A DNA stretch of 64,000 nucleotides from a bacterium (GTDB lineage: Bacteria; Actinomycetota; Acidimicrobiia; Spongiisociales; Spongiisociaceae): NCBI GenBank assembly GCA_028821265.1, contig JAPPGU010000008.1:36446-100445 (forward strand), read 5' to 3'. Positions 21,849-55,057 of the stretch are shown here, piece by piece. A program made the position numbers and the translations under genes. The notes below the pieces were generated by a model. It was not told the DNA's origin. It saw nothing but the letters and a program-made list of their open reading frames with translations, and ran no database searches. Within the stretch, counting starts at the first letter, position 1. Each line of letters starts with the position of its first letter.

Positions 21849-22541
21849 CTATGCCGGGCGCCCCGCCTTGAGGAATCTCGAACCGAGCATGATGAACCAG
21901 ATCACCCACGGGAAGTAGCAGGCGCGTCCGATCGCGATCATGGCCTCGCTCGGGGTGGTGTAACCGATGATCAGCGCTGCAACGGAGATGGCGGACACCA
22001 CGGCGATCACCAGTGCGGCCGTCCTGTGGAGGCCGCTACGTTCCCTGGCCGCCAGGCTCAGGCTGAAGGCCAGCAGGCCCAGCGATACGGCAACACCGGA
22101 TACCAACGTGATGCCCAGCCCGGTCCGGTAGGTCGGTATGGCGGCTGCTAGAGCCTCCGCTGACGACACCCTGGTCTGCGCGAGCAGGTGGTCGAGCCCG
22201 GTGGCGAGTATCCATCCGACACCGCCCACGGTTGCGCTCAGCAGACCGAACCTCGTTCCGGCGGCGGCGTAATCAGGCCCCGTGGTCACCCGGCTCACTC
22301 CGGACAACCCGTAGAGCAGGAGGAGCAGGCCGAGCGGTACGAAGAGCGCGGACAGATGCGCCAGGAAGGGATTCGCGGCCAGCGCGGTAATCCTGCCGAC
22401 GGAGTCCATCGAATCCGCCGGCTCGACGAGCAGCCCGCCCGGCTCGACCAGGAAGAAGACCAGGGCCATGGCCGGCCCCACCATGAGCGCCCAGGCCTCC
22501 AGCCTGTGGATCGCATCGGTTCTCATGGAATCGGTTCTCAT
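21849..22541 (-). CDS. Hypothetical integral membrane protein
   Basis: Six predicted TM segments. N-terminus MRTDSMRTD encoded by a 12-bp tandem duplication. Confidence 0.5.
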   Translation of the reverse strand: MRTDSMRTDAIHRLEAWALMVGPAMALVFFLVEPGGLLVEPADSMDSVGRITALAANPFLAHLSALFVPLGLLLLLYGLSGVSRVTTGPDYAAAGTRFGLLSATVGGVGWILATGLDHLLAQTRVSSAEALAAAIPTYRTGLGITLVSGVAVSLGLLAFSLSLAARERSGLHRTAALVIAVVSAISVAALIIGYTTPSEAMIAIGRACYFPWVIWFIMLGSRFLKAGRPA

Positions 22542-22790
22542 GGTTCACCCCTTTCCCCCGAACGCACTGAAGGAGAACCCCTCTCGTGCGCCGGATGGTA
22601 GCGGCCACCCGTCTCGCCCTCCGGGGTTTCGGGGCCGGCGAGCCGCGGCGGAGGGAGCACACGGGCCGGCTCCTGGCTTTCGGACCAACCTGCAAACCCC
22701 ACATGGTTGGGAACGACGAGTAGGTGCCCGACCGTTGCCCACCGAACGGCCCTTCACCCTTAGCTAGCGGTCAGAGGCGACCCCACCCTC

Positions 22791-23047
22791 CCCAGAACGC
22801 GAAAATCGCGGGCGCCCGCCTCCGGCCCAGGGCCCTCCCCCGCCACCACCTGTCCTGCCTGGAGCGTGGTCGGCCATGCCCGGCCGGCTGCCGGGCGATC
22901 GGCCTTCGCTCCTCGAAGCTCGTCTGACCCCTTGGCCGGCAAACCGATCGGTCGGTAGCTGTTCACCGGCGTAGGTGACTAGCGTCAAGCAAGGTATACC
23001 GGGGTTGTGACAGATCCGGGCCATCCCGGGGAGAACGCGAGAAATCG
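22791..23047 (+). repeat. Copy A of a ~230-bp intergenic repeat family bounded by GAACGCGAAAAT-like direct repeats
   Basis: Shares conserved core with 25500-25707 and 32392-32600: …GGGCCCTCCCCCGCCACCACCTGTCCTG..GGAGCGTGGTCG.C.ATGCCCGGCCGG..GCCGGG…CCGATCGGT…TGTGAC. Begins CAGAACGCGAAAATCG and ends GAGAACGCGAGAAATCG. Confidence 0.6.
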
Positions 23048-23130
23048 GGTCAGGACCGGTGGGCAATGGCGTCCAAGGATCTCCTCGTCACCCGTTACCC
23101 GACTAGCCGGATCCGGCGGCCGCGCCCGGG

Positions 23131-23922
23131 TCAGGCCAACTCTGCGGTCGTGAACACCACGTGGAACGGCACGCAGTAGATCACCAGGGTCACCTGCTCG
23201 GGTATCACGTAGTCAGCCGGCACCTCATAGTTCTGCGAACCGATATTCCCCTTGAGGGGGCCCAGATCCACGTAGCCGGCCTCCCGGAGATGGTCACGAC
23301 CCGCCAATCCATGGACCGGAGTCAGGAGGACGTGGAGTTGGGGACCGTTGGTCACCTCGATGTCCTCGAGACGGATGATCCTCGATCCGTCCTCGAGCTC
23401 GTACAGGACGACCTGGCCGGATCCCTTGTGGAACGAGTCGGCATCCACCAGGTTCCCCGAGAGCAAGGCCACCGGGCCGGTGGGCGCGGGCGGCAGGGTC
23501 GTGGTCGGCTCGGGCGGCAGGGTCGTGGGCGGCTCGTCAGCTGTCGCCGCCGTGGTCGCCGGCGCATCGCCATCCGGAGCCGCGGTCGTAGCCGTCGAGG
23601 TGGTGCTCGCCACCGCTGGCGTCGTTGTCGTGGGCATCTCGGGCATGTCTTCGTCGGCCGGTGTATCTGTCGATGCGGCATCGAGCATGATCGCCTCGAC
23701 CTCCTCGGCGGTCATGTCGTCTGGGACGACCGCCATGGCGGCGAGGGGGAAGGGTTCGTCCACCACCCGGTCGATGAAGAGCGGCGATCCTAGCCACCAG
23801 GCCAGGCCGATTGCCGGTAGGGCGACGATGACCGCCGCCACCTGGATGGAACGTCGCTTGTAGAACGGAGTGCGGTTGCTGCTCAAGCCGGCCTCCCCTG
23901 TTTGCCTCTCCATAGATGACAA
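23131..23922 (-). CDS. DM13-domain secreted/membrane-anchored protein with Thr/Pro-rich linker
   Basis: N-terminal TM; low-complexity TTTPAVASTTST… linker; C-terminal DM13-like domain (…SGQVVLYELEDGSRIIRLEDIEVTNGPQLHVLLT…). Confidence 0.6.
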   Translation of the reverse strand: MSSMERQTGEAGLSSNRTPFYKRRSIQVAAVIVALPAIGLAWWLGSPLFIDRVVDEPFPLAAMAVVPDDMTAEEVEAIMLDAASTDTPADEDMPEMPTTTTPAVASTTSTATTAAPDGDAPATTAATADEPPTTLPPEPTTTLPPAPTGPVALLSGNLVDADSFHKGSGQVVLYELEDGSRIIRLEDIEVTNGPQLHVLLTPVHGLAGRDHLREAGYVDLGPLKGNIGSQNYEVPADYVIPEQVTLVIYCVPFHVVFTTAELA

Positions 23923-23990
23923 CGCCGGGCCCGCTCAGTTTGTTCCCCCAACGAGGATCGCCATCGGAGGTGCTGTACCCTGACCCTCCT

Positions 23991-24542
23991 ATGGGAGACA
24001 GGATTGTCGCAGTCTACGGCTCCTCGCGGGCTCTCCCCGGTGACGGTGTCTACGAGGAGGGAGTCGAGCTGGGCCGCCGGCTGGTAGAGGCCGGGTTCGG
24101 GGTCACCAACGGCGGCTACTCGGGGCTGATGGAGGCTGTGTCGAAGGGCGCGGCGATCGCGGGCGGACGGGTCGTCGGCGTGACCGCCCCGGTGCTCTTC
24201 CCGCACCGGCCGGGCGGGAACGGGTTCCTGACCGAGGAGATCCAGGCCGCCGGGCTGCTCGACCGGATCAGGACCATGTCCGAACTGGCCAGCGCCTTCA
24301 TCGTGATGCCGGGCAGTATCGGGACCCTCACCGAGCTGATGATCGCCTGGAACGACGCCTACCTCGCCGCGGGGCGGGGGGCGGCGCCGATGCCGATCCT
24401 CGCGTTCGGGGACGCCTGGAGCGAGATCGTCGATCGCCTGACCGGGGAGCTCCGGACCACTGCCGGCCTGGTCACCATGGTGGACAGCCCCGCCGAGGCG
24501 GTGGAGGTGTTGCGGCGCCGGCTCGGAGACGGGGCGCGATAG
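23991..24542 (+). CDS. LOG family protein (TIGR00730; cytokinin riboside 5'-monophosphate phosphoribohydrolase-like)
   Basis: GGYSGLMEAV and PGSIGTLTEL motifs. Start at internal Met (MGDRIVAVYGSS). Confidence 0.75.
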   Translation: MGDRIVAVYGSSRALPGDGVYEEGVELGRRLVEAGFGVTNGGYSGLMEAVSKGAAIAGGRVVGVTAPVLFPHRPGGNGFLTEEIQAAGLLDRIRTMSELASAFIVMPGSIGTLTELMIAWNDAYLAAGRGAAPMPILAFGDAWSEIVDRLTGELRTTAGLVTMVDSPAEAVEVLRRRLGDGAR

Positions 24543-24627
24543 CTCACGGACCGGCAGATGCGGCCGGCGGGGCCGATAAGATGCGGCATACCTCGATGAC
24601 CCGACCTGCTCCCCGGTACCTGCCCGT

Positions 24628-25491
24628 ATGAGGGACTCCCCTGTCGAACAGGCTGCCGGTGGCGTGGTGTGGCGGGAGGGACCTCTGGGGATCGAGGTTC
24701 TCCTGGTCCACCGGCCCGGATACGACGACTGGACGTTTCCCAAGGGCAAGCTCGAGTCCGGCGAGTGCCTGGTGGCGTGCGCCAGGCGCGAGGTGCGGGA
24801 AGAGACCGGCGCGCGTCCGCTGATCGGGCGCTACCTGGGTGAGATCTCCTACGCCAAGCGAGAGGGCCTCCGTAAGGTGGTCCACTACTGGGCGATGCGG
24901 GCCGATGAGGTCGATTTCGTGTCCTCCTCCGAAGTGGACCGGATCCGGTGGGTCGACGAAGCATCCCTGGCCGACCATGTCTCCTACCCGACCGAGCGCG
25001 CTCTGAGCGAGCGCCTCACGGACGGTTGGCGGGATCCGGCCGACCGGATCCTGCTGGTCCGGCACGCCGATGCCGGCAAGCGAGACCGGGGGCCGAGGCC
25101 CGACAGCGCCCGGCCGCTGTCGGAGCGGGGCCGAGCCGAGGCGGTTGGTCTGATCGAGGGACTGGAGGGCTTCCCGATCGACGCCGTGATCACCAGCTAT
25201 GCGGCGCGTTGCTGCCAGACCGTCACGCCCCTGGCCACCGCCCGCAAGCGCGTACCGCAGATGGCGATCGAACTCTGGGAGGAGTCCCGGCCCGCCGAGG
25301 TGAGGGCCCTGTTGCGTAATCGGCCTGAGGGGACCAGCCTGCTCTGCTCCCATCGCCCGATCGTGGGAACGATCCTGCGGACGCTCATGGGAGAGAAGCA
25401 GGCTCCAATACTCCAGAAGGGCTCGACCTGGGTGCTGGACTTCGCGGACGGTGAGTTGGTCGCCGCCAACTACCTTCCCCCACGCCGCTAG
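24628..25491 (+). CDS. NUDIX hydrolase fused to histidine-phosphatase (SixA-like) domain, MutT1-like
   Basis: Nudix box GKLESGECLVACARREVREETG in the N-half; histidine-phosphatase RHADAG motif (LLVRHADAGKRD) in the C-half. Confidence 0.75.
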   Translation: MRDSPVEQAAGGVVWREGPLGIEVLLVHRPGYDDWTFPKGKLESGECLVACARREVREETGARPLIGRYLGEISYAKREGLRKVVHYWAMRADEVDFVSSSEVDRIRWVDEASLADHVSYPTERALSERLTDGWRDPADRILLVRHADAGKRDRGPRPDSARPLSERGRAEAVGLIEGLEGFPIDAVITSYAARCCQTVTPLATARKRVPQMAIELWEESRPAEVRALLRNRPEGTSLLCSHRPIVGTILRTLMGEKQAPILQKGSTWVLDFADGELVAANYLPPRR

Positions 25492-25499
25492 GAGCCGAA

Positions 25500-25707
25500 C
25501 TCGCGAAAGACGGGTGCTCCGCACCGGGCCCTCCCCCGCCACCACCTGTCCTGTTCGGAGCGTGGTCGCCCATGCCCGGCCGGTGGCCGGGAGGTGGACC
25601 TTCGCTCCATGAGCTGTCATGTTCCCTCGGGCCGGCCGTTCCGATCGGTCTGTCTCATCGGCCGGTATTGGTGCTTGGCGATAGGCACCATATATCAGGG
25701 CTGTGAC
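25500..25707 (+). repeat. Copy B of the ~230-bp intergenic repeat family
   Basis: ~80% identity to copies A and C over the core; ends CTGTGAC. Causes the spurious N-terminal extension of ORF 25594. Confidence 0.6.
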
Positions 25708-25887
25708 ATTTTCTGCCCGTCAACCCATGGAGGAGGCCCGTTCGGCTCCTGCCGGGAGGATCGCCCGGTTGTCACCGGGCTGGGTCGTTTGGCCGGGCAG
25801 GGGAATATGCTGGGTCCTCGTATGGGTACGGGTCGCTTGGTTAGGAACGCACCGGCATGGTTGCCGGCACTTCGCACGAGCCGCGTC

Positions 25888-27252
25888 ATGTGGCTCGGAG
25901 TCCTGTTGGCGGCGTCGTTGCTGGTGGCGGGGTGTGGGGCCGCCGACGATGGGTCCGAAGTCCCGGCCGAGCCGCCCGCCACCACGGCCGATCCGGCCGC
26001 CGCAACAGAAGGTTCGAGCACCGTCCCCGGGTCCACGCAGGCGGCAACCACGACCGGCGCGGCGGATGCTCCCGCGCCCTCCTCGACCGCCGCGCCGGAT
26101 CCGGAGGGGGCGGCGCCGGCGGTGGCAGAGCCGGCGGTAGCAGACCCGGCACCGGAGGATCCGGAGGGCGGGCCCGACCCTAAGCAGGGCCTGGATCCGG
26201 TGGTGGCCTATGCCACCGAGTCGTGGCCCACCGACTGGGCAAACCGCACCGTCGACCTGTCGGAGCTGCTGCTCGGGATCGGCATGATCGATCCGCGGGA
26301 TGCCATCCCGCCCATCGATGACCCGATCTTCGAGTCCCTCGACCAGGCCGCCGAGTGGCTCGACAGCAGGGCGCCGGGAATGCTGGTCTCCATCGGCGGC
26401 GACTCCCGCTTCTACGCGCTCAGCATCCTCCATCGCCACGAGATCGTGAACGACCGGATCGGGGGCATCCCCGTCGCGGTCACCTACTGCCCGCTGTGCA
26501 ACACGGCGCTGGTCTTCGACAGCCGGGTGGGCGGCGAGGAGCTCCGCTTCGGGGTGTCGGGACTCCTCCGCAACTCCGACCTGGTCATGTGGGACGACGG
26601 GACCGTCTCGCTGTGGCAGCAGGTCACCGGCGAAGCGATCGTGGGCGCCGCGGCGGGAACGGTCCTCACCCACATCCCGAGCGCCATCGTGTCGTTCGGG
26701 GAGTTCGCCGCCGCCTATCCGGACGGACGATCCCTTTCCCGGGACAACGGTGGCGGCATACCGTACGGCTTCAATCCCTACGAGGGGTACTCCAGCCGGG
26801 CGGCGCCCTATCCCTTCTTCACCGGCGAGGTCGATCCCCGCTACGGGGCCCTGGAACGGGTGGTGGGGGTGACCATCGGCGGCGCCGCCACTGCCTACCC
26901 GTTCCCCCTGCTCGCCGAGGTCGGGGCGGTCAACGACTCCGTCGGAGGGGTTCCGATCACGGTGTTCTGGGGCGGGGACACCGCCGACGCCCTCGACAGC
27001 CGGGTGGTGCGCGAGGGGCGGGCGATAGGGACGGGGATCGCCTACCTGCGCCAGGTGGACGGGCGCCCGCTGACGTTCTTCAAGGAAGGCGAGGTGTTCC
27101 GGGACCAGGAGACCTCGTCGACCTGGACCCTGCTGGGCGAGGCGGTCAGCGGCCCGCTGGCCGGGTCCAGGCTGGAGATCGCCATCCATCGCAACGAGTT
27201 CTGGTTCGCGTGGGGCGCCTTCTTCCCGGAGGGGGACGTCTACGAAGGGTGA
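25888..27252 (+). CDS. DUF3179-family lipoprotein
   Basis: Start MWLGVLLAASLLVAGC (lipobox); Ala/Pro/Thr-rich linker; conserved body …VAVTYCPLCNTALVFD…. The ORF-track N-terminus (25594-25887) is translation of repeat copy B. Confidence 0.65.
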   Translation: MWLGVLLAASLLVAGCGAADDGSEVPAEPPATTADPAAATEGSSTVPGSTQAATTTGAADAPAPSSTAAPDPEGAAPAVAEPAVADPAPEDPEGGPDPKQGLDPVVAYATESWPTDWANRTVDLSELLLGIGMIDPRDAIPPIDDPIFESLDQAAEWLDSRAPGMLVSIGGDSRFYALSILHRHEIVNDRIGGIPVAVTYCPLCNTALVFDSRVGGEELRFGVSGLLRNSDLVMWDDGTVSLWQQVTGEAIVGAAAGTVLTHIPSAIVSFGEFAAAYPDGRSLSRDNGGGIPYGFNPYEGYSSRAAPYPFFTGEVDPRYGALERVVGVTIGGAATAYPFPLLAEVGAVNDSVGGVPITVFWGGDTADALDSRVVREGRAIGTGIAYLRQVDGRPLTFFKEGEVFRDQETSSTWTLLGEAVSGPLAGSRLEIAIHRNEFWFAWGAFFPEGDVYEG

Positions 27253-27368
27253 CCGGCCAGGGCCTGAAGGTCACCCGGATGGCATCGGTGTCGCGCCCGC
27301 TCGAAGGGACGATCCCGGCGCACGTGCTCGCTCGACCCCCGACCCGTCCGGCGGCGCGGGAGATCCGG

Positions 27369-28520
27369 CTAGATGAGGTCCTGCTCGCGGATCCCGAACG
27401 AAGGGTGGCGCAGCCGGCAGAGGGCCAGCTTCTCGAGCTGACGGATCCGCTCCCTGGTGAGGTTGAACTCCTCACCGATCTCCTCCAGCGTCCTCGGAAC
27501 GCCGTCCAGGAACCCGTACCGGAGCGAGAGTATCCGGCCTTCCCGGTAGGGAAGCCGGTCGATCGAGCGGCGCAGGCAGTCGGACACGTCCAACTCCACG
27601 GTGACCTGCACCGGGTCATCGGCGTCCTGGTCCTCGATGAAGTCCCCGAGCTGGGCGCCGTCCTCGCCGACCGGCTTCTCGAGCGAGGCGGCGTCCGAGA
27701 CGCTCAGAGCCAGCTCCACCTTGTCGAGGGTGACGCCGGCCTCTTCGGCAATCTCGGCCGGCTTCGGATCGCGGCCCAACTCCGCCTTGAGGCTGGCTTG
27801 CGCGGCCCGGACCGCCGCCAACGTGTCGTGGAGGTGGACGGGGATGCGGACGGTACGGGACTTGTCGGCGATGGCGCGGGTGATGGCCTGGCGGATCCAC
27901 CAGGTGGCGTAGGTGGAGAACTTGAAGCCCTTCCGCCAGTCGAACTTCTCGACTGCCCGGATCAGACCCAGGTTTCCTTCCTGGATCAGATCGAGGAAGT
28001 CGATTCCCGAGGTGTTGGCATACCTCCGGGCGTTGGCGACCACCAGCCGGAGGTTGGCAGTGAGGAACTCGTCCTTGGCCCGGCGGCCCCGGTCCCGCTT
28101 GCGCTTGAGCCTGAGCCGATCCTTCTGGAGCTTCTTCCGGTCGTCCCTGAGCCTGCTCCAGGACTTCTCGAGCTTGTGCCGCTCCTCCTCCGGAAGCTTC
28201 ATCTCCCGGTTACGGAGCCGGCGCTCCCTGGCCCTTAGCCTGTCCTCCCTCTCGTCGAGATCACCGTCCTCCAGCGCTGCGCCGGCCTTCAGCCCCTCCT
28301 CGATGGCCTGGGCCAGCTCGACCTCCTTCTCGGCGTTGAGCAACTCGTACTCGCCTATGGCGGCCAGGTACTGGCTCACGAGGTCGGTTGTGAGCCGACC
28401 CTTCTCGTCGGTCAGCTTGTTGCTGTTTCTGTCCCGCTCCCGCTTGGCTACCGAGCCTGCGGGTGCCACCGGTTTCTGCCGGGTCGGGTTTGCGACAGCC
28501 ATGCGGTTCCCTCCACTCAT
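27369..28520 (-). CDS. RNA polymerase sigma-70 family factor (principal/RpoD-like group 1/2) with Lys/Arg/Glu-rich insertion between regions 1.2 and 2
   Basis: Regions 2-4 are canonical (…[45 protein letters not shown]…[20 protein letters not shown]…). Region 1.2 [17 protein letters not shown]. ~55-aa charged insert [59 protein letters not shown]. Confidence 0.85.
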
Positions 28521-28555
28521 CGCCCGCCGGCCGTTCCGGCGATTAACTCCTTGCG

Positions 28556-28583
28556 GTAAGACCGGCCCCGGGGCCGGTCTTAC
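28556..28583. promoter_or_regulatory. Perfect 28-bp palindrome GTAAGACCGGCCCCGGGGCCGGTCTTAC in the divergent promoter region between sigma factor and thioredoxin-domain gene
   Basis: 14+14 perfect inverted repeat ~36 nt upstream of the sigma factor start codon; candidate operator or 5'-UTR hairpin. Confidence 0.35.
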
Positions 28584-28897
28584 CGAGACTACTCAACTCC
28601 TGCCTGCCGCGTGTCCAGCGCGTGAAGCCGACCCCCGCCGGTCCCTCAACACCGAACACGTTCATGCTACGCGCACCGGCGAGGTAACGAGGACGCTGGT
28701 CGGTCGGGCTCTCGCGGCAAACGATGCCCGTACGCCGACATACTCCACAACGCCTTTCCGGCCGCGTTTCTTCCGCCTTTTCGATTAGCGATGCCTTTTC
28801 AACGCCCGGAGCCGCCCCGGACGGCAAGCACACGCACCTACGTAACATGGTGCTGACGACCCCAGGGGGATTTCATGCGCCGACACCGTGACCTGCC

Positions 28898-30943
28898 ATG
28901 GCGCTGCTGAGAGACCTGCCGCTCGAGGGGTTGTCCCCTTACCTGATCCAGCACCGGGACAACCCGGTCGACTGGCACCCATGGGGAGAGGAGGCCTTCG
29001 AGGCCGCCAAGACCGCGGACCGCCCGATCCTGCTCTCGGTCGGATACTCGACCTGCCATTGGTGCCATGTCATGGAGCGGGAGTCCTTCCACGACCATGC
29101 AACGGCCGATTTCATGAACCGGCATTTCGTATCGGTCAAGGTTGACCGCGAGGAACGACCCGACGTGGACTCTATCTACATGGACGCGGTCCACACCATG
29201 ACCGGCCGGGGCGGCTGGCCCATGACCGTGTTCCTGACGCCCGGCGGCCGCCCGTTCTTCGCCGGGACGTACTTCCCCGATGTGGACCGCCACGGCATGC
29301 CCAGCTTCCGCCGCGTGCTGGAGGCGATCGAGCACGCCTGGCGGAACAGACGGAAAGACGTGCGGGAACAGGCGGACCAGCTGACCGGGGCGATCGGGCT
29401 CACCCTCCCACCCGCCGAGGACCTGCCCGGCCGAGCCCGGGTGAGCGCCGCCTACGAGACCCTCTCCCGGCAGTTCGACTTGCAACACGGCGGCTTCGGC
29501 GGCGCCCCCAAGTTCCCCCAGGCGCCGATCCTGGAGTTCCTGGCCAGGATAAGCGGCCTCGCCACGGCGACCAAGGCCAAGCCGATGCTCACCACCACAC
29601 TGACCCGCATGGCGCGAGGCGGCATCCGCGACCACCTGGGCGGCGGGTTCGCCCGCTACTCCGTGGATCGGATCTGGCTGGTCCCCCACTTCGAGAAGAT
29701 GCTCTACGACAACGCCGATCTGGCCCGCCTGTACGTCCGGGCGTGGCAGATCACCGCCAACCCGTACTACCAGGAGGTGGCGGTCGACACCCTGGGGTAC
29801 ATGTTGCGGGATCTCGCCCATCCCGGGGGCGGCTTCTTCGCGGCGGAGGACGCCGACTCCGAGGGGGTGGAGGGCAAGTTCTACGTGTTCGATCACGAAG
29901 AGTTCCACGAGGTGGTCGGACCGGACGACGGGCCCGTGGCCGCCACCTACTTCGGGGTGTCGAAGGGCGGCAACTTCGAGGGCGACAACATCCTCTACGA
30001 GTCAGCCACCACCTCGGAGGTGGCGGAAAGGTTCGGCACCGGGGTCGAGGAGGTGGAGAGCGCGATCGGGCGGGCCAAGGAGAGGCTCCTGGCCCGCCGG
30101 GGCACCAGGATCCGGCCCGGCCGGGATCACAAGATCATCACCGTGTGGAACGGTTTCGCCCTGCGGGCGCTCGCGGTGGCGGGCGCCGCGCTGGGGACGG
30201 AGGACTACCTGGAGGCGGCCCGGGCGAACGCCCGGTTCGTCCTCGGCGAGATGCGCCGCCGCGACGGGCGCCTGGCGCGGGTCTGGAGCAACGGCCTGGC
30301 GCCGATCCCCGGGTTCCTGGAAGACCACGCGGCGTACTCCCTCGGGCTTCTGGAGCTCTACCAGGCCACCGGCGAGGTCGAGTGGTTCGTGGCCGCCCGG
30401 GAGCTGGTCGACCTGCTGGAGGAGCACTTCGGCGGCCCGACCGGGGTGGTGTTCGCCAGCGCCGCCGACGCCTCCAACCTGGTGGTAAGGCCGTCCGACC
30501 AGCAGGACAACCCGAGCGCCTCCGGCGCATCGCTGGCGGCGGAGTGCTACCTACTGCTCGGTCATCTCACCGGGGACCACAGGTATCACGAGCGCTTCGA
30601 GCAGATCGTCCGGGCGGGGGACCGGCTCCTCGAGGCGGCCCCTTCCGCGGCCGGTCACCTGCTGGCGGCCCTGGCCGCGTCCCAGATGGGCATACGGGAG
30701 GTGGCCGTGACCGGGCCTCGCGCCCTGGAGTGGGCCGGGCGGCTCGCCGGAACCTACCGGCCCGATCTGGTGCTGGCCCCGTCCCCGGGTCCTGCCGATG
30801 AGGTTCCCGTGGTGGCCGGGCGCTACCGGGAGGGCGAGACCCTCGGCTACGTCTGCGAGCGGGGCGCCTGCCGGATGCCGGTCGGATCCTACGCCGAGCT
30901 GGAGGTCCAGGTAGCCGGGAAGGGCTACGATCGACCCTCGTGA
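28898..30943 (+). CDS. Thioredoxin-domain protein, DUF255/YyaL family (N-terminal Trx-like plus six-hairpin glycosidase-like domain)
   Basis: …[23 protein letters not shown]… CxxC Trx-like motif; 681 aa. Confidence 0.8.
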
Positions 30944-31887
30944 TACACGGGAACGCCCTCGACGCCATCGGCTGGACGCCCCTGGTCCGGCTGGCCCGAC
31001 TCCATCCACCCGGGAACCTGGTGGCCAAGCTCGACTACCTGAACCCGGCCGGGTCGGTCAAGGAGCGGATCGCGGTCAACATGATCGACCAGGCCGAGCG
31101 GCAAGGATTGCTGGGTCCGGGAGGGACGATCATCGAGCCCACCTCGGGCAATACGGGGGCCGGCCTGGCCATGGTCGGGGCGGTCCGGGGTTACCGGGTG
31201 ATATGCACGGTCCCCGACAAGGTGGCGACCGAGAAGATCCGCCTGCTCGAGGCCTACGGAGCGGAGGTCATCGTCACCCCCACGAACCTGCTCCCGGAGG
31301 ACGAGGACTCCTACTACGGCGTCGCCCGCCGCCTGACCGAGGAGATCGACGGTGCCTTCAGCCCCGACCAGTACTCCAACCCGTCCAACCCGGAGGCTCA
31401 CTACCTGACGACCGGACCGGAGGTGTGGGAGCAGACCGGAGGGGAGATCGACGTGTTCGTGGCAGGCGTGGGCACCGGCGGGACCATCTCGGGGACGGGA
31501 CGGTACCTGCGGGAGCGCAAGCCGTCGGTGGAGCTGGTGGGGGCCGATCCGGAGGGATCGATATACACCGCGGCCCGCGAGGAGGACATCCACCAGTACC
31601 GGGTGGAGGGCGTCGGGGAGGATTTCTGGCCCGAGACCCTGGACCGGGACATCGTCGACCGCTACATCATGGTGGACGACCAGCAGTCGTTCGACATGGC
31701 CCGGCGGGTGGCCGAGTGCGAGGGATTGTTGATCGGCGGCTCCGGGGGCATGGCGGTGCATGCGGCGCTCAAGGTTGCGGCGGAGGACACCGGCCGCCTG
31801 GTGGTGGTGCTTTTACCCGATTCGGGGCGGGGCTACCTGTCGAAGATCTGGAACGAGGAGTGGCTGGCCAAACACGGCCTCGAATAA
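30940..31887 (+). CDS. PLP-dependent cysteine synthase family protein (CysK/CysM/CBS-like)
   Basis: …[12 protein letters not shown]… (PLP-Lys) …[10 protein letters not shown]…[10 protein letters not shown]… GTG start overlaps the upstream stop (GTGA). Confidence 0.8.
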
Positions 31888-31920
31888 GCCGCTCGGAGCC
31901 GCCTTCCGAGTCAAGAAAAG

Positions 31921-31950
31921 AGTCCGGGGCCCCGTCAATGGGGCCCCGGA
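31921..31950 (+). terminator. GC-rich hairpin (12-bp perfect stem GTCCGGGGCCCC, 6-nt loop) 34 nt downstream of the cysteine-synthase stop; intrinsic terminator candidate
   Basis: Perfect inverted repeat seen in sequence. Trailing sequence UACGUUCGCUUAUCC is only weakly U-rich. Confidence 0.45.
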
Positions 31951-32160
31951 CTACGTTCGCTTATCCAGAAAGCCTACCCGTACTTCATCGTGAAATCCTT
32001 AGCCTCACTCGATGCCGCATGAGGACCGGCATGCGGACGGGAAAGCCCGGTGGTCCGAGTTGGAGTCGCCACCGGACCGGCGGTCACGCCTGAGGGCGAC
32101 CACCGGAAGCGACCCGTGGCCGCTAGCGCTCGGCCACCTCCAGAGTCCTACTAGAACTGG

Positions 32161-32186
32161 GTAACAAGTCGGATCACCTCCTTTCT
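32161..32186 (+). other. 16S rRNA 3'-terminus-like fragment (…GTAACAAG..GGATCACCTCCTTTCT) in an 835-bp intergenic region
   Basis: Exact 16-nt match to the conserved bacterial 16S rRNA 3' end, including the anti-Shine-Dalgarno CCTCC. Preceded by GTAACAAG, as in the 16S helix-44/45 junction. No further rRNA body detected. Confidence 0.4.
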
Positions 32187-32391
32187 CTGGTACGCGCCAA
32201 TATAGCGGCCCGTTGTGCATGAGAGGTGCATGACGTGCCCGGCGATCGCCGGCGGGACCTTCCCGAGGACCCGGCCCGCAGGCGACGACCGGCCACCATC
32301 AGGCTCACAACGTCACACACGGTGCCGTGAACCTGAGGCTCAGAGCGTCATATATGACGCCCTCTGCCTCAAGAACCGCCTAGCGCCGCAA

Positions 32392-32634
32392 GTCGCGAAA
32401 ATCCGTGCCCCGCACCGGGCCCTCCCCCACCACCACCTGTCCTGTTGGAGCGTGGTCGGCGATGCCCGGCCGGCTGCCGGGTGTCGGCTGTTCGCTCCAT
32501 CGAGCTGTCATGTTCCCTCGGACCGGCCGCTCCGATCGGTACTCACATCATCGGCCGGTGTAGGTGCTTGGCGGTAGGCAACGTATATCAGGGGTGTGAC
32601 GCGTTTAACCCCTTTTCTTCAGAACGCGAAAAAT
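32392..32634 (+). repeat. Copy C of the ~230-bp intergenic repeat family (core 32392-32600 plus 3' GAACGCGAAAAAT direct repeat)
   Basis: Aligned with copies A and B; begins GTCGCGAAAATCC, ends GTGTGAC, then CAGAACGCGAAAAAT 20 nt further on. Confidence 0.6.
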
Positions 32635-32722: not shown

Positions 32723-33328
32723 TTAGAGGGCGTCCGACAGGGCGCGCCAGAGGTCGGTCACGGCGGACCCCAAGCCTCCCAGCGCCCAGCGCAGGACCAG
32801 GGCCACGACGGCGATCCCGGCCGCGGCGAAGATCATCCGGAGCCGGTAGGTCATCGTCTCCTCGCTGTCCTCCAGGTAGGAGGGATTGGCGACCGGCGCC
32901 CGCGCCATGGCGCGCCGTCGCCCGAGGGATTGCCTGGCTCTCGAGATCAGTTTCGACCCGGGCGCCTCCGAGAACTCAAGAGGGGCGCTCTCCGGGTGTG
33001 GGAGATCCGGCGGCTCCTCCAGCTCGACGAACTCGATGTCGTACAGGGTGTCCTCGTCCAGATCGGTGTCCGGCTCGGGCGGCGGCAGCAGCATCCTGTG
33101 CTCGTCGACCCGCCGCAAGGCTTCCTCCAGGAGAGGCATCGGCAGCCTCAGCGCGGCGGACACGTCCACCAACTCGTCGGCGTCAGGTACGGCGGAGCCC
33201 TGTTCCCAGCCGACCACCACTTCGATCGGCCGCCCGGTTCGGGTGGCGATGTCCACCACGGAGACGTCCATCTCTTCACGGCGCTTCGCGAACAGGCGGG
33301 CGAACGCCAGCCCTTCGTCCGGCGACAT
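32723..33328 (-). CDS. HTH (XRE-like) domain membrane protein, RodZ-like architecture
   Basis: Start MSPDEGLAFARLFAKRREEMDVSVVDIATRTGRPIEVVVGWE (HTH), acidic linker, C-terminal TM helix. ATG overlaps the stop of the upstream gene by 1 nt. Confidence 0.5.
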   Translation of the reverse strand: MSPDEGLAFARLFAKRREEMDVSVVDIATRTGRPIEVVVGWEQGSAVPDADELVDVSAALRLPMPLLEEALRRVDEHRMLLPPPEPDTDLDEDTLYDIEFVELEEPPDLPHPESAPLEFSEAPGSKLISRARQSLGRRRAMARAPVANPSYLEDSEETMTYRLRMIFAAAGIAVVALVLRWALGGLGSAVTDLWRALSDAL

Positions 33329-33732
33329 CAGTGGGTCAGTATCTCGGGGAGGCTGTCGGGTTCCGGCCCGGCGGTGACCCGCAGCAGACCGAGGTCCTTG
33401 ACGTTCCAGCACAGGGTCATGCCACCCGGCACCAGGAGCCGCAGGATCGACTCACCGTCGGCGCGGCCGGCGTGAACCTCACCGAGCGCCAGCACCTCGG
33501 TCAGGGGGATCGAGGCGGAATAGGCGCCGTCGGCGCTGAGGGCCGTGACGTGGGTGGCGCCCGTCCGGGGCCGGGCCGCCTCGATCAGCGGGCGCATGGC
33601 CACCACCACGCCCGCCGCGCCCTCCTCCGGAGTTCCCATGTCGTGGAGGGTGTCCAGGTCGTAGCCCCGGGGACGGTCGACCAAGCCGGTCACCCGCAGC
33701 AGCGGTAGCTCGTTGGATGTTCCACCAGACAC
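33328..33732 (-). CDS. Small sulfite-oxidase-fold (Oxidored_molyb-like) domain protein, no obvious Mo-ligating Cys
   Basis: …LLRVTGLVDRPRGYDLDTL…AYSASIPLTEVL…ILRLLVPGGMTLCWNVKDLGLLRV… resembles the Moco-domain core of the YedY/sulfite-oxidase family, but only 134 aa. Confidence 0.4.
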   Translation of the reverse strand: MSGGTSNELPLLRVTGLVDRPRGYDLDTLHDMGTPEEGAAGVVVAMRPLIEAARPRTGATHVTALSADGAYSASIPLTEVLALGEVHAGRADGESILRLLVPGGMTLCWNVKDLGLLRVTAGPEPDSLPEILTH

Positions 33733-33787
33733 GGTCCAACGGTAGCGTTAACGGGATGCCAAGCCGCGCCTTGGACCCCGCAGGTCA

Positions 33788-33882
33788 TGGCGGAGGCGGA
33801 CGGGAATCGAACCCGCCGGGGCACTCTCGTACCCCCACTGGTTTTGAAGACCAGGGAGCCCACCAGGCGCTCGTTCGCCTCC
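33788..33882 (-). tRNA. selC: tRNA-Sec (selenocysteine tRNA), anticodon UCA
   Basis: Minus-strand sequence GGAGGCGAACGAGCGCCTGGTGGGCTCCCTGGTCTTCAAAACCAGTGGGGGTACGAGAGTGCCCCGGCGGGTTCGATTCCCGTCCGCCTCCGCCA. 95 nt; anticodon loop CU-UCA-AA; long variable arm (GGGGG…CCCC). T-arm GCGGG-TTCGATT-CCCGT, then an 8-nt acceptor 3' strand, G73 and CCA, giving the 8/5 acceptor/T architecture diagnostic of bacterial tRNA-Sec. -10-like TATCCT 7 nt upstream. Confidence 0.8.
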
Positions 33883-42530: not shown

Positions 42531-43325
42531 ATGAGCTACCCCATCAGGATCGCCGTGCAGATCCGTCCCCAGCACGGCGACTACCGGGACATCAGGGCGG
42601 CCGCCGTCCAGGCCGAGGAGATGGGCGTGGACGCGGTGTTCAACTGGGACCACTTCTACCCGCTCTACGGCGATCCGGACGGCAAGCACTTCGAGTGCTG
42701 GACCATGCTCGCCTCGTTCGCCGAGGTGACCGAGCGGGTGGAGATCGGCGCCCTGGTCACCTGCTACTCGTACCGCAACGCCCACCTGCTGGCCGACATG
42801 GCGCGCACGGTGGACCACATCAGCGACGGTCGCCTCATCCTGGGCCTCGGTGCCGGATGGTTCGAAAAGGACTACAGCGAGTACGAGTACCCGTACGGCA
42901 CCGGCGGCACCCGGCTCCGGGACTTCGAAGCCGGTCTGTACCGCATCACCAAGCGCCTACGGCTGCTCAACCCTCCCCCGGTGCGGGACATCCCCATGCT
43001 GATCGGCGGCATGGGCGAGAAGCAGACCCTACGGCTCGCAGGCCGCTACGCCGACATCTGGCACGGGTTCGGCGGTCCGGAGACGCTCACCCGCAAGAGC
43101 CGGATACTGGACGGTTGGTGCCGCGAGGCGGGACGTGACCCGGCCGAGGTGGAGCGCGCCATCGAGGTCGAGGACCCGACGGACATCGACCGCGCCGACG
43201 GGCTTCTGGCGGCCGGGGCCACCCTGATAACGCTGTCGATCAACGGACCCCGATACGACCTGTCGGCCGTGCCGGACTGGCTCAGCTTGCGGGACGGCCG
43301 GAACGCCGCCCGACAAGGGGGTTGA
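42531..43325 (+). CDS. Luciferase-like monooxygenase family, F420-dependent oxidoreductase class (LLM class F420)
   Basis: …AEEMGVDAVFNWDHFYPLYGD…LILGLGAGWFEKDY… TIM-barrel LLM signature. 19 nt after the selenoprotein gene stop. Confidence 0.7.
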   Translation: MSYPIRIAVQIRPQHGDYRDIRAAAVQAEEMGVDAVFNWDHFYPLYGDPDGKHFECWTMLASFAEVTERVEIGALVTCYSYRNAHLLADMARTVDHISDGRLILGLGAGWFEKDYSEYEYPYGTGGTRLRDFEAGLYRITKRLRLLNPPPVRDIPMLIGGMGEKQTLRLAGRYADIWHGFGGPETLTRKSRILDGWCREAGRDPAEVERAIEVEDPTDIDRADGLLAAGATLITLSINGPRYDLSAVPDWLSLRDGRNAARQGG

Positions 43326-43358
43326 ACCCGCCGCCGTCCCGCCCCATACTGCCCGGCA

Positions 43359-43527
43359 GTCACAAACACCACCGGGCTCTTGCTTTTCGACGTCGGAGGG
43401 ACCGGACCAGGGATCAATCGGGAGCGGACCCGTGCGGGGATGGCGGAACGCGCTCGGACCAAAGGAGGTGGTGGCTGGGGGCCGGGCCCGCCGGGTGGGG
43501 TGTTCTTCGGCGATTTTCGCGTTCTCG
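43359..43527 (-). repeat. Degenerate inverted-orientation copy D of the ~230-bp repeat family
   Basis: Reverse complement reads GAGAACGCGAAAATCGCC…CCGGCGGGCCCGGCCCCCAGCCACCACCTCCTTTGGTCCGAGCG…CCGATTGATC…GGTGTTTGTGAC, alignable to copies A-C. Confidence 0.35.
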
Positions 43528-44948: not shown

Positions 44949-45158
44949 CTAGCCCTGATTATTCCTGTTCCCAGCACACCAACACGAATCAGGCCACTTC
45001 AACCACATAATCCGTAAGCGGCCACCCTTCACCCGGCGGTTTTATTCCAAACCCGGCCGGGAGATGGGGCCGTCGAATGGCCATGACTCCAGGCCAGGAT
45101 CATGGAACAACCAATTCCGTCACCCGGACAAACCCCCACCATGAATAATCGGGGCTAG
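44949..45158. mobile_element. MITE-like element copy 1 (~202 bp core flanked by CTAG target duplications; 12-bp terminal inverted repeats CCCTGATTATTC / GAATAATCGGGG, 11/12; IS5-family-like ends)
   Basis: ~85% identical to 54850-55057. Both copies bounded by CTAG on each side, as in the IS5-family YTAR target duplication. No ORF inside. Confidence 0.55.
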
Positions 45159-45228: not shown

Positions 45229-46281
45229 TCAAACGGCGAAGATTCGTTTCGGGTTCTCGATGAGCATGTCGTCGATCTGGTCTCGGGTGACACCGGCATC
45301 GAGGAGCTGGGGAACGATCTCGTTGAGGATGTAGGCGTAGCCCTTGCCGCCGTAGGCGACCAGGTGCGTCTTCAGGCACCGGTCCTGGGCGAGCATGATC
45401 TGCCGGCTGTAGCCGTCAGCGCAGAGGCGGGCCAGCGTTTCGACGCGCTCCCGGTCGGAGATCCAGTGGTCGCCGCCGAAGAGGAGGTGGGTGTCGGTCC
45501 ACGATGTGTCTCCGAAGCAGTCGTAGTCGATGGAGACGCCCCGGTCCATCACCGACTCGTGATACTCGTAGTCGGGGCAGCTCCCGTCCATATGGCTCAT
45601 GTAGACCTTGTCGAGGTCGGCGCCCTCCTCCTCCAAGATGTCGATGTAACGGTGAGCCTCCTTCATGAACACCATCGGATGCACGGTGAGCGGAACCCCG
45701 GTGGCCGCCTGGGCCCTACCCCCGGCCCGGAGGACCTTCTCCTCCTGGGGGTGCAGGGGCTCGCACATGCCCAACTCGCCGATGACGCCCGCCCGAATGT
45801 CGGTCCCCTGGATACCCACCTCGATGTCGCTGATCAACATCTCGGCCAACTCTCCCACCGATGCCGTGGCGTGGCCGGAAGGATGGGACGGAGCGATGTA
45901 CCAACCGGTGGAGGCGACGATGTTGACTCCGGTGGCTTCGCTGGCGACCACGAGGTCATCGGGGTGCCAGCCGGGGATCCGGCCGCTGACATCGACGAAG
46001 CTCTGCCCGCCGGCGTCGGCGTACAGCTGCAGCTCCCGGATGGCGACGTCCAGCTCCGTCATCCGCAGGTTGTCCTTCGATACGTACGGGTGGGCGGCGA
46101 CGTCGCCGGCGTTCTCCGGGGTCACCGGGCCCGCTGCCAGAGCCTGGATCTCGGGCGGATCGCTTGTCGAAGGCTCGTGCCAGAACAGATGCGAGGTGTC
46201 GAGCAGCAGGTGCTCGTGGCTCATAGTGACGCCGAGGTCATCCGGTGAGATCTCGCCGAGGACGGTACGGACGTTGGCCAT
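45229..46281 (-). CDS. Phosphotriesterase-family (PTE/PHP, amidohydrolase superfamily) protein
   Basis: …GVTMSHEHLLLD… (HxH metal site) …TGVPLTVHP… full-length 350 aa. Confidence 0.8.
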   Translation of the reverse strand: MANVRTVLGEISPDDLGVTMSHEHLLLDTSHLFWHEPSTSDPPEIQALAAGPVTPENAGDVAAHPYVSKDNLRMTELDVAIRELQLYADAGGQSFVDVSGRIPGWHPDDLVVASEATGVNIVASTGWYIAPSHPSGHATASVGELAEMLISDIEVGIQGTDIRAGVIGELGMCEPLHPQEEKVLRAGGRAQAATGVPLTVHPMVFMKEAHRYIDILEEEGADLDKVYMSHMDGSCPDYEYHESVMDRGVSIDYDCFGDTSWTDTHLLFGGDHWISDRERVETLARLCADGYSRQIMLAQDRCLKTHLVAYGGKGYAYILNEIVPQLLDAGVTRDQIDDMLIENPKRIFAV

Positions 46282-46298
46282 GAGCTACCGGCTTCCCC

Positions 46299-54468: not shown

Positions 54469-54740
54469 TCAGACGGCGAAGATCCGCTTCGGGTTCTCCA
54501 CCAGGAGATCGTTCAACTGATCTTCGGTGACCCCGGCCTCGCGCAGCATCGGAACCACCTCGGTCAGAGCGTACACCCATCCCTTGCCGCCGTGCTCGGC
54601 GAAGTGCGCCTCGAGACAGTGGTCGTGCGCAATCATGACCTGCTTGCTGTAGCCGTCTGCGCCCAACCGGGCGAGCGTTTCTACCCGCTCCTGGTCCGAG
54701 ACCCGGTGGTCTCGTCCGAAGATGAGGTGCGACTCGTTCC
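54469..54740 (-). pseudogene. Truncated phosphotriesterase-family gene (C-terminal ~90 aa only)
   Basis: …FGRDHRVSDQERVETLARLGADGYSKQVMIAHDHCLEAHFAEHGGKGWVYALTEVVPMLREAGVTEDQLNDLLVENPKRIFAV is ~60% identical to the C-terminus of the intact PTE-like gene at 45229-46281. No N-terminal 260 aa. Second MITE copy lies 110 bp upstream. Confidence 0.6.
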
Positions 54741-54849
54741 ACCTCGGCGACTACCTGGATCTTCTCGACCAGCTCCGCCCCGTAGTGAACGTCGCCACCC
54801 CGGTGCCCAACGGCAACCTCCGGATCGCTTCAGTCGTTGATGGCCCTGT

Positions 54850-55057
54850 CTAGCCCTGATTATTCCTGTTCCCAGCACACCAACGCGGATCAGGCCACTT
54901 CAACCACACAATTCGCAAGCGACCACACTGCTCCCTGCGGTTGATTCCGCACCGAATGGAAGACGGGTCTATCAGATGGTTGTAACCCCAGGCCACGAGT
55001 ACGAAGCATCCATTCTCGTCACCCGGACAGACCCCCACCATGAATAATCGGGGCTAG
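54850..55057. mobile_element. MITE-like element copy 2 (CTAG-flanked, same 12-bp terminal inverted repeats)
   Basis: CTAGCCCTGATTATTCCTGTTCCCAGCACACCAAC…GAATAATCGGGGCTAG, ~85% identical to copy 1. Confidence 0.55.

Follow-up and report, generated by a model that had tools for sequence, protein, structure and literature searches.

The window analysed here, 64,000 nt of contig JAPPGU010000008.1 from a member of the Spongiisociaceae (Acidimicrobiia), holds four copies, A to D, of a repeat that we interpret, at a probability of roughly three in four, as belonging to an undescribed family of genes for structured small RNAs (sRNAs), each gene being transcribed on its own. The first-pass annotation of this DNA had read the repeat on the plus strand, with copy D inverted, and had suggested either a miniature inverted-repeat transposable element (MITE) with site-specific duplication or a structured sRNA family. 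The functional strand is instead the opposite one, as indicated by the promoter, the U-tract, an excess of G-U pairs and covariance model searches. The sRNA half of the suggestion gains from the promoter and terminator, compensatory base changes, the G-U excess and orthologous positions, while the MITE half loses ground, there being no terminal inverted repeats and a constant flanking repeat. The family has the anatomy of a gene, covaries in structure, is asymmetric between strands, is under purifying selection, does not depend on its neighbours and has expanded in one lineage; transcription of the copies is inferred from sequence.

Relatives were collected by scanning one genome per species with a 20-mer taken from the block of highest conservation. 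This gave 54 loci, 50 of them from Acidimicrobiia-type metagenome-assembled genomes (MAGs), mostly Ca. Spongiisocius/Spongiisociaceae with several loci per genome; the other four, from Chloroflexia, Dehalococcoidia, Pleurocapsa and WOR-3 MAGs, did not align with the other loci and were discarded as matches due to chance. The genome loci yield 61 copies, almost all from sponge-associated Acidimicrobiia (Ca. Spongiisocius and relatives), where the copy number is 5-11 or more per genome. A metagenome scan with a second invariant block produced 19 loci, 16 of which hold 17 further copies; these are of the same core type, come from a few projects and add no diversity. The family is multi-copy and apparently restricted to one clade.

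The anatomy was derived from an alignment of 45 full copies. Every one of them ends, on the strand opposite to that of the first-pass annotation, in a GC-rich hairpin followed by UUUUCGCG. The sequence of this hairpin varies among subtypes with complementarity kept (five of its seven pairs are changed on both sides), and the UUUUCGCG behind it is nearly invariant, with a short U-run of 4-5 U. Directly upstream of the RNA body, 56 of 58 full copies carry GGGTtGAAc-N2-TGTCACA-N9-TAcGtT; two copies, L008 and L023, have lost the promoter. In the -10 hexamer the T, the A and the final T are nearly invariant and the preceding 9 nt vary freely, as would be expected if this is a TAnnnT promoter whose spacer measures 17 nt. 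The copies would thus have what is looked for in an sRNA gene, namely their own sigma-70-type promoter directly upstream and a putative Rho-independent terminator at the 3' end. The conserved blocks listed by the first-pass annotation are real, being nearly invariant across 45-61 homologues, but its element boundaries take on another meaning: TGTGAC, given as the 3' end, corresponds to the invariant TGTCACA in the promoter spacer, and the boundary motif GAACGCGAAAAT is the U-tract box of the terminator, read as its reverse complement. The invariant GTCACA of the spacer also resembles both the MtrA recognition motif quoted in PMC2945938 and the Streptomyces MtrA sites predicted in PMC12323332, a sequence resemblance that we treat as a lead.

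RNAalifold and a single-sequence minimum free energy fold of copy B agree on three helices, P1, P2 and P3, and on the terminator. In P1, which closes a junction, CGCCA..CACCU at the 5' end pairs with AGGUG.UGGCG close to the 3' end. The internal loop of P2 (CCGGCCG/CGGCCGG), 10-12 nt long, is hypervariable, and the helix has a palindromic tip, which is CCGAUCGG in general, UCGAUCGA in one subgroup and of GACGUC type in a short subtype; P3 consists of GGAGCG/CGCUCC and an inner GCC/GGC, ending in a CCCGGC/GCCGGG hairpin. No variation is seen in three stretches rich in purines, which are GAGGGAACA, CCAGGAC and, just before the terminator, GGGGGAGGGCCC. Most of the variation among copies lies in the loops. 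The predicted sequence of events is that a sigma-70-type promoter (TTGAAC-like -35, 17-nt spacer with TGTCACA, TAnnnT -10) would start transcription a few bases before CGCCAAGCACC, placing the 5' end near CGCCAAGC, and that the GC-rich hairpin followed by the U-tract would stop it, with the 3' end in that tract; the product, ~185-205 nt, would fold into the P1-closed junction with P2 and P3.

The first-pass annotation had suggested looking for covariation among aligned copies, and compensatory changes are present, above shuffled controls. In a MAFFT alignment of 40 copies, 92% of the cells are paired and 26 show double-sided changes, against 9.9 ± 2.6 after shuffling (0 of 500 shuffles reach the observed value). 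In a model-fitted alignment of 61 copies, 94% of the cells are paired, 18 of 40 pairs show a compensatory change, and there are 76 double-change cells, where shuffles give 16 and slid controls no more than 34. G-U pairs are commoner than A-C pairs, by 73 to 23 in the unfitted MAFFT alignment and by 118 to 24 in the fitted one, an excess that places the selection on the proposed RNA strand. The strand first read was considered as the RNA strand and rejected: it has neither the promoter nor the U-tract, the covariance model finds only hairpin fragments on it, and G-U exceeds A-C on the other strand. The alignments thus point to a secondary structure conserved with covariation on one strand, as would be expected of an sRNA gene.

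Position and conservation also speak for maintained genes. Copies A and B stand at the syntenic site in all five other genome loci that cover it (L047, L007, L045, L021 and L028 for A; likewise five for B), and copy C has an orthologue, L013, that is 94% identical. For every copy of the window, identity to the orthologues at the corresponding position is 85-98%, above the 60-83% that it shares with the other window copies, its paralogues. Between species the RNA is 82-88% identical, compared with 79-89% for the flanking coding sequences and 73-80% for the adjacent spacer, which is only partly alignable. Synteny, the higher identity of orthologues than of paralogues and the gene-like conservation together indicate that the duplications are old and that the copies have been maintained. 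The family occupies at least 25 unrelated genomic contexts, in every orientation to the neighbouring genes; no recurrent neighbour gene or protein partner was found, the blastp clusters of neighbours mirroring orthologous contexts only.

In the window itself, a covariance model built from 40 homologues gives exactly four significant matches, A, B, C and D. A MAFFT alignment and a mechanical repeat search agree, showing three copies of evident relatedness on one strand and a fourth, weaker one in inverted orientation, so that all four copies of the first-pass annotation are recovered at about the same coordinates and, as it had noted, between genes. Relatedness of A, B and C holds, at a pairwise identity of 70-83% that is slightly lower than the 75-85% first given; D is 60-68% identical to the others.

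Copy A has its RNA body and terminator at 22794-22988 (-), with a cmsearch score of 144 bits and a full-length match (1-192). Its hairpins lie at ~22807-22833 and its U-tract box, ATTTTCGCGTTCT, is the reverse complement of 22794-22806. The predicted promoter at 22989-23019 (-) has the -10 TACCTT (reverse complement of 22991-22996), TGTCACA (of 23006-23012) and a weak -35 CGGATC (of 23014-23019), in register with the promoter consensus of the 56 copies. Farther upstream, an additional box, ATTTCTCGCGTTCTC, at 23031-23045 (-) is what had been seen as a second GAACGCGAGAAAT motif. Copy B (25498-25684 (-), 186 bits) is antisense to the spacer between the NUDIX and DUF3179 genes, with a hairpin at 25511-25528 and CUUUCGCGAGUU as the reverse complement of 25498-25509; its predicted promoter, 25685-25715 (-), combines the -10 TATGGT (reverse complement of 25687-25692) and TGTCACA (of 25702-25708) with a poor -35, CAGAAA. 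Copy C (32390-32577 (-), 181 bits) has its hairpin at 32403-32418 and AUUUUCGCGACUU as the reverse complement of 32390-32402. The putative promoter of copy C, at 32578-32608 (-), consists of the -10 TACGTT (reverse complement of 32580-32585), CGTCACA (of 32595-32601) and the -35 TTAAAC (of 32603-32608) at a 17-nt spacing, and its upstream box, ATTTTTCGCGTTCTG, lies at 32620-32634 (-). The second GAACGCGA(A/G)AAAT motif reported past the element is therefore found in both A and C, as these upstream boxes.

Copy D is on the other strand. Its short-subtype RNA and terminator cover 43357-43525 (+) (34 bits, E 6e-8), ending in a CGCCG...CGGCG hairpin followed by AUUUUCGCGUUCU at 43513-43525. The predicted promoter (43322-43350 (+)) has the -35 TTGAAC at 43322-43327, a 17-nt spacer without TGTCACA and the -10 CATACT at 43345-43350, and it aligns with GGGGTTGAAC of L015 and of the core type; that both hexamers are kept around an unrelated spacer supports their assignment. 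Copy D had been called a degenerate inverted copy. It is inverted and divergent but not merely degenerate, since it shares derived characters, GGGAUCA, AACGCGCU, the GACGUC-type palindrome and a shortened P3, with a shorter subtype elsewhere, namely L015, L024, L040 and L033, from other Acidimicrobiia with one locus per genome in the 20-mer scan. No conserved context was found for the members of this subtype, apart from a luciferase-like gene of 27% identity beside L015. Copy D may exemplify an older and shorter state of the family, whose expansion in the Spongiisocius group would have been as the longer type; whether D is functional is uncertain, its modelled fold being no better than shuffles.

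Several points weigh against the sRNA reading. Most positions in the helices show no variation, the aligned sequences are relatives of one another, and the structure guided the fitting of the larger alignment; the covariation statistics are therefore supportive rather than decisive. Folding z-scores are weak for this GC content (-1.6 for B, -0.7 for its complement and +2.2 for D). The -35 is poor in copies A and B, and a generic promoter and terminator scan called no copy's promoter or terminator; its thresholds are too strict for 4-5 U and for TAnnnT promoters, which makes it uninformative rather than negative. REP-like arrays (repetitive extragenic palindromic, REP) often adjoin the copies. 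Finally, the box ATTTTTCGCGTTCTC (RNA sense), which is the terminator U-tract, recurs ~13 nt upstream of the -35, at a fixed distance, in ~40% of copies, and this double use at terminator and promoter looks repeat-like. The upstream box may be left over from a tandem duplication of the unit, may be an UP-like or regulator site, or may serve as an insulating terminator behind a co-oriented gene upstream. For the last of these we saw only a weak trend, such a gene being present for 14 of 18 box-bearing and 23 of 39 box-less copies, and we did not retain it; the hairpins ahead of the upstream box are mostly weak.

The alternative that survives best, though we consider it improbable, is that of a DNA repeat, either REP-like or mobile but non-autonomous (a MITE or a unit with site-specific insertion), which spreads through the TTTTCGCGTTCT box and carries its promoter- and terminator-like features as incidental cargo. 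The presence of four copies within 21 kb of the window would fit it, as would the 12-14-nt box flanking ~40% of copies at a fixed distance and being found almost only with the family (69 of its 80 occurrences in 425 kb), the extra tandem boxes and REP-like arrays beside many copies, one solo terminator module without an RNA body, and the two copies without promoter. However, an inverted-repeat search found no terminal inverted repeats in A or C, only internal hairpins, and an 11-nt inverted repeat flanking copy B is not kept in its more distant orthologues. Wherever a flanking direct repeat is present it is the same box, doubling as the terminator U-tract, with no variable target duplication; the ~13-bp direct repeats described around A and C do exist, but the same sequence at every site is not what site-specific target duplication would leave. 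No transposase or recombinase gene lies near the copies, and the window contains no transposase gene. The synteny of copies across species, with orthologues more alike than paralogues, is against mobility as well, and the compensatory changes, together with the excess of G-U pairs, suggest that selection acts on the RNA.

Some repeats in and beside the family are described here in their own right. (i) The inverted repeat that brackets copy B is perfect over its 11 nt (AGGAGCCGAAC at 25490-25500 and GTTCGGCTCCT at 25740-25750) and identical in L029; it could pair in a plus-strand operon mRNA, or be due to chance. (ii) One to three extra tandem TTTTCGCG(A/G)GTTyGsCC units come after the terminator box, within the first 20-60 nt past the terminator, in L005, L014, L027, L031, L042, L052 and L053; where the box is repeated in this way, REP-like palindromic arrays come next. 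(iii) REP-like units (…GAGGCAGAGGGCGTCATATATGACGCCCTGAnCCTCAGG…), often in tandem, lie downstream of the RNA terminator in L004, L013, L016, L019, L025, L030, L032, L046 and others, and are a second repeat family of these genomes. In the window, such palindromic units (GAGGCAGAGGGCGTCATATATGACGC...CCTCAGG) occupy 32300-32372, directly downstream of the copy C terminator, a region for which Tandem Repeats Finder reported no rows. (iv) A solo module at L042:2846-2915 has the terminator hairpin, TTTTCGCGACTT and REP units without an RNA body. (v) A separate MITE-like element of ~210 bp has two copies, 86% identical, at 44949-45158 and 54850-55057, with unrelated flanks and 16-nt terminal inverted repeats (CTAGCCCTGATTATTC ... 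GAATAATCGGGGCTAG); one copy is beside a phosphotriesterase gene (45229-46284, -) and the other beside a 93-aa C-terminal phosphotriesterase fragment (54469-54750, -).

A cis-regulatory leader, in which a riboswitch-like aptamer and terminator would control the downstream gene on the RNA strand, is very improbable. The order of promoter, structured domain and intrinsic terminator is the classic riboswitch layout, and 13 of 43 copies do have a co-oriented downstream gene, some within 6-51 nt; in the other 30, among them B, C and D, the downstream gene is on the opposite strand, the neighbour genes are unrelated across contexts, and no Rfam riboswitch is matched. Unrelated contexts together with this orientation exclude a general 5'-leader role. 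Least credible is a small-protein mRNA, for example of a type I toxin with translation locked by long-distance 5'/3' pairing, for although the closing helix P1, the purine stretches GAGGGA and GGAGG resembling Shine-Dalgarno (SD) sequences, an AUG or GUG in some copies and the many copies per genome, as with type I toxin loci, suit it, start codons are not conserved (AUG, GUG, GAG, CAG and UAG share one column) and indels of 2, 3, 4 and 5 nt between invariant blocks leave no common reading frame, the same frame-shifting on which the first-pass annotation had rightly based its view that the repeat is not a protein.

No family of Rfam 15 (including 6S, Y RNA, raiA, ribozymes and group II intron domains) matches the repeats; searches at the gathering score, at E ≤ 1 on 22.5 kb and at E ≤ 10 on copy C alone (a 291-nt query) gave chance-level fragments only. 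In the literature searched, Spongiisocius is not mentioned, nor are Acidimicrobiia together with sponge and small RNA.

Sibling sRNA families such as Qrr1-5, LhrC1-5 and the cyanobacterial Yfr2-5 are 60-110 nt long, with C/U-rich anti-SD seeds. Like them, the present family has several paralogous, independently transcribed genes, scattered between other genes, with a similar promoter and Rho-independent terminator (both predicted here), conserved core segments and variable loops. Unlike them, its RNA is ~190 nt long and more structured, with ~40 bp and a multi-branch junction closed by 5'/3' pairing; there are more copies (at least 5-11), conservation covers nearly the whole body rather than a short seed, and the unpaired conserved stretches are purine-rich. 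By analogy, the family would be a sibling sRNA family, unusual in length, structure and copy number. The protein-sequestering RNAs of CsrB/RsmX-Z type display GGA motifs in repeated hairpin loops, and 6S RNA is a rod with a central bubble. Both resemble the present RNA in size range and in having their own promoter and terminator (again predicted here); 6S also shares the 5'/3' closing stem, and the Csr/Rsm type shares several GGA-containing purine motifs, RsmX being multi-copy in some species. The present RNA, however, has no Rfam match even at the most permissive setting above, forms a junction instead of a rod, and does not display its GGA motifs in repeated hairpin loops. With MITEs and with REP repeats or bacterial interspersed mosaic elements it has in common that it is short, non-coding, multi-copy, intergenic, hairpin-rich and often beside palindromic units; it differs in having no terminal inverted repeats or variable target duplications, in its stable positions across species, and in its predicted promoter and terminator, RNA-level covariation and gene-like conservation.

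The surroundings are unexceptional. The window has 67.6% G+C and is ordinary chromosomal DNA by third-position GC and by Pfam content, with genes for an E1 dehydrogenase, DM13, LOG, NUDIX, DUF3179, a sigma-70 factor, HflX, Gnd, PepN and a thiolase. We note some further features: (i) In the long spacer downstream of copy C, 32009-32191 (-) has a sub-threshold Rfam match to Ms_IGR-5, an actinobacterial sRNA (20 bits against a gathering score of 45, E 0.66), and 31921-31952 (-) holds a GC hairpin of 13 bp with a T-run. (ii) Rfam detects a tRNA-Sec at 33792-33882 (-), 77 bits, adjoining a fragmentary molybdopterin-oxidoreductase-like open reading frame (ORF) at 33328-33747. (iii) The segment 21849-27252 looks like a mosaic relative to published MAGs (L029, L047 and L007 were compared), being 99% identical to WTGI01 over NUDIX-DUF3179 and 98% to WTGW01 over 21849-22544, with DM13 90-91% identical to both; this pattern suggests recombination between lineages or a mixed-strain assembly.

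The copies matter for annotation, as loci of this kind give rise to false extensions of ORFs and might be mistaken for transposable repeats. The long DUF3179 ORF at 25594-27252 starts inside copy B, on the opposite strand, and its Pfam domain begins far downstream; the start at 25594 had been recognized as a misleading extension, and it does run into copy B. The true start is likely the in-frame ATG at 25807, which is preceded by GGGGA.

As to function, the siblings may be trans-acting regulatory RNAs that work by protein binding or by base pairing, and may be co-regulated through the shared promoter element; dosage or paralogue-specific loops could be the reason for the many copies. Between orthologues, conservation extends to the loops that are specific to each paralogue, namely the 10-12-nt internal loop of P2, J2/3 and the loops of P3. 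Perhaps, and this we offer as a speculation that is rather unlikely to hold, the RNA is the RNA subunit of a ribonucleoprotein of sponge-symbiont Acidimicrobiia, with an invariant scaffold (P1-P3 and the purine-rich strands) and paralogue loops that set target or partner specificity, the whole set being co-regulated via the MtrA-box-like GTCACA. The bacteria that carry the family are uncultivated sponge symbionts. With its 190-nt structure, 5-11 or more copies per genome, protein-like conservation across several species and absence from Rfam, the RNA is a candidate for a major regulatory or protein-binding RNA of this clade.

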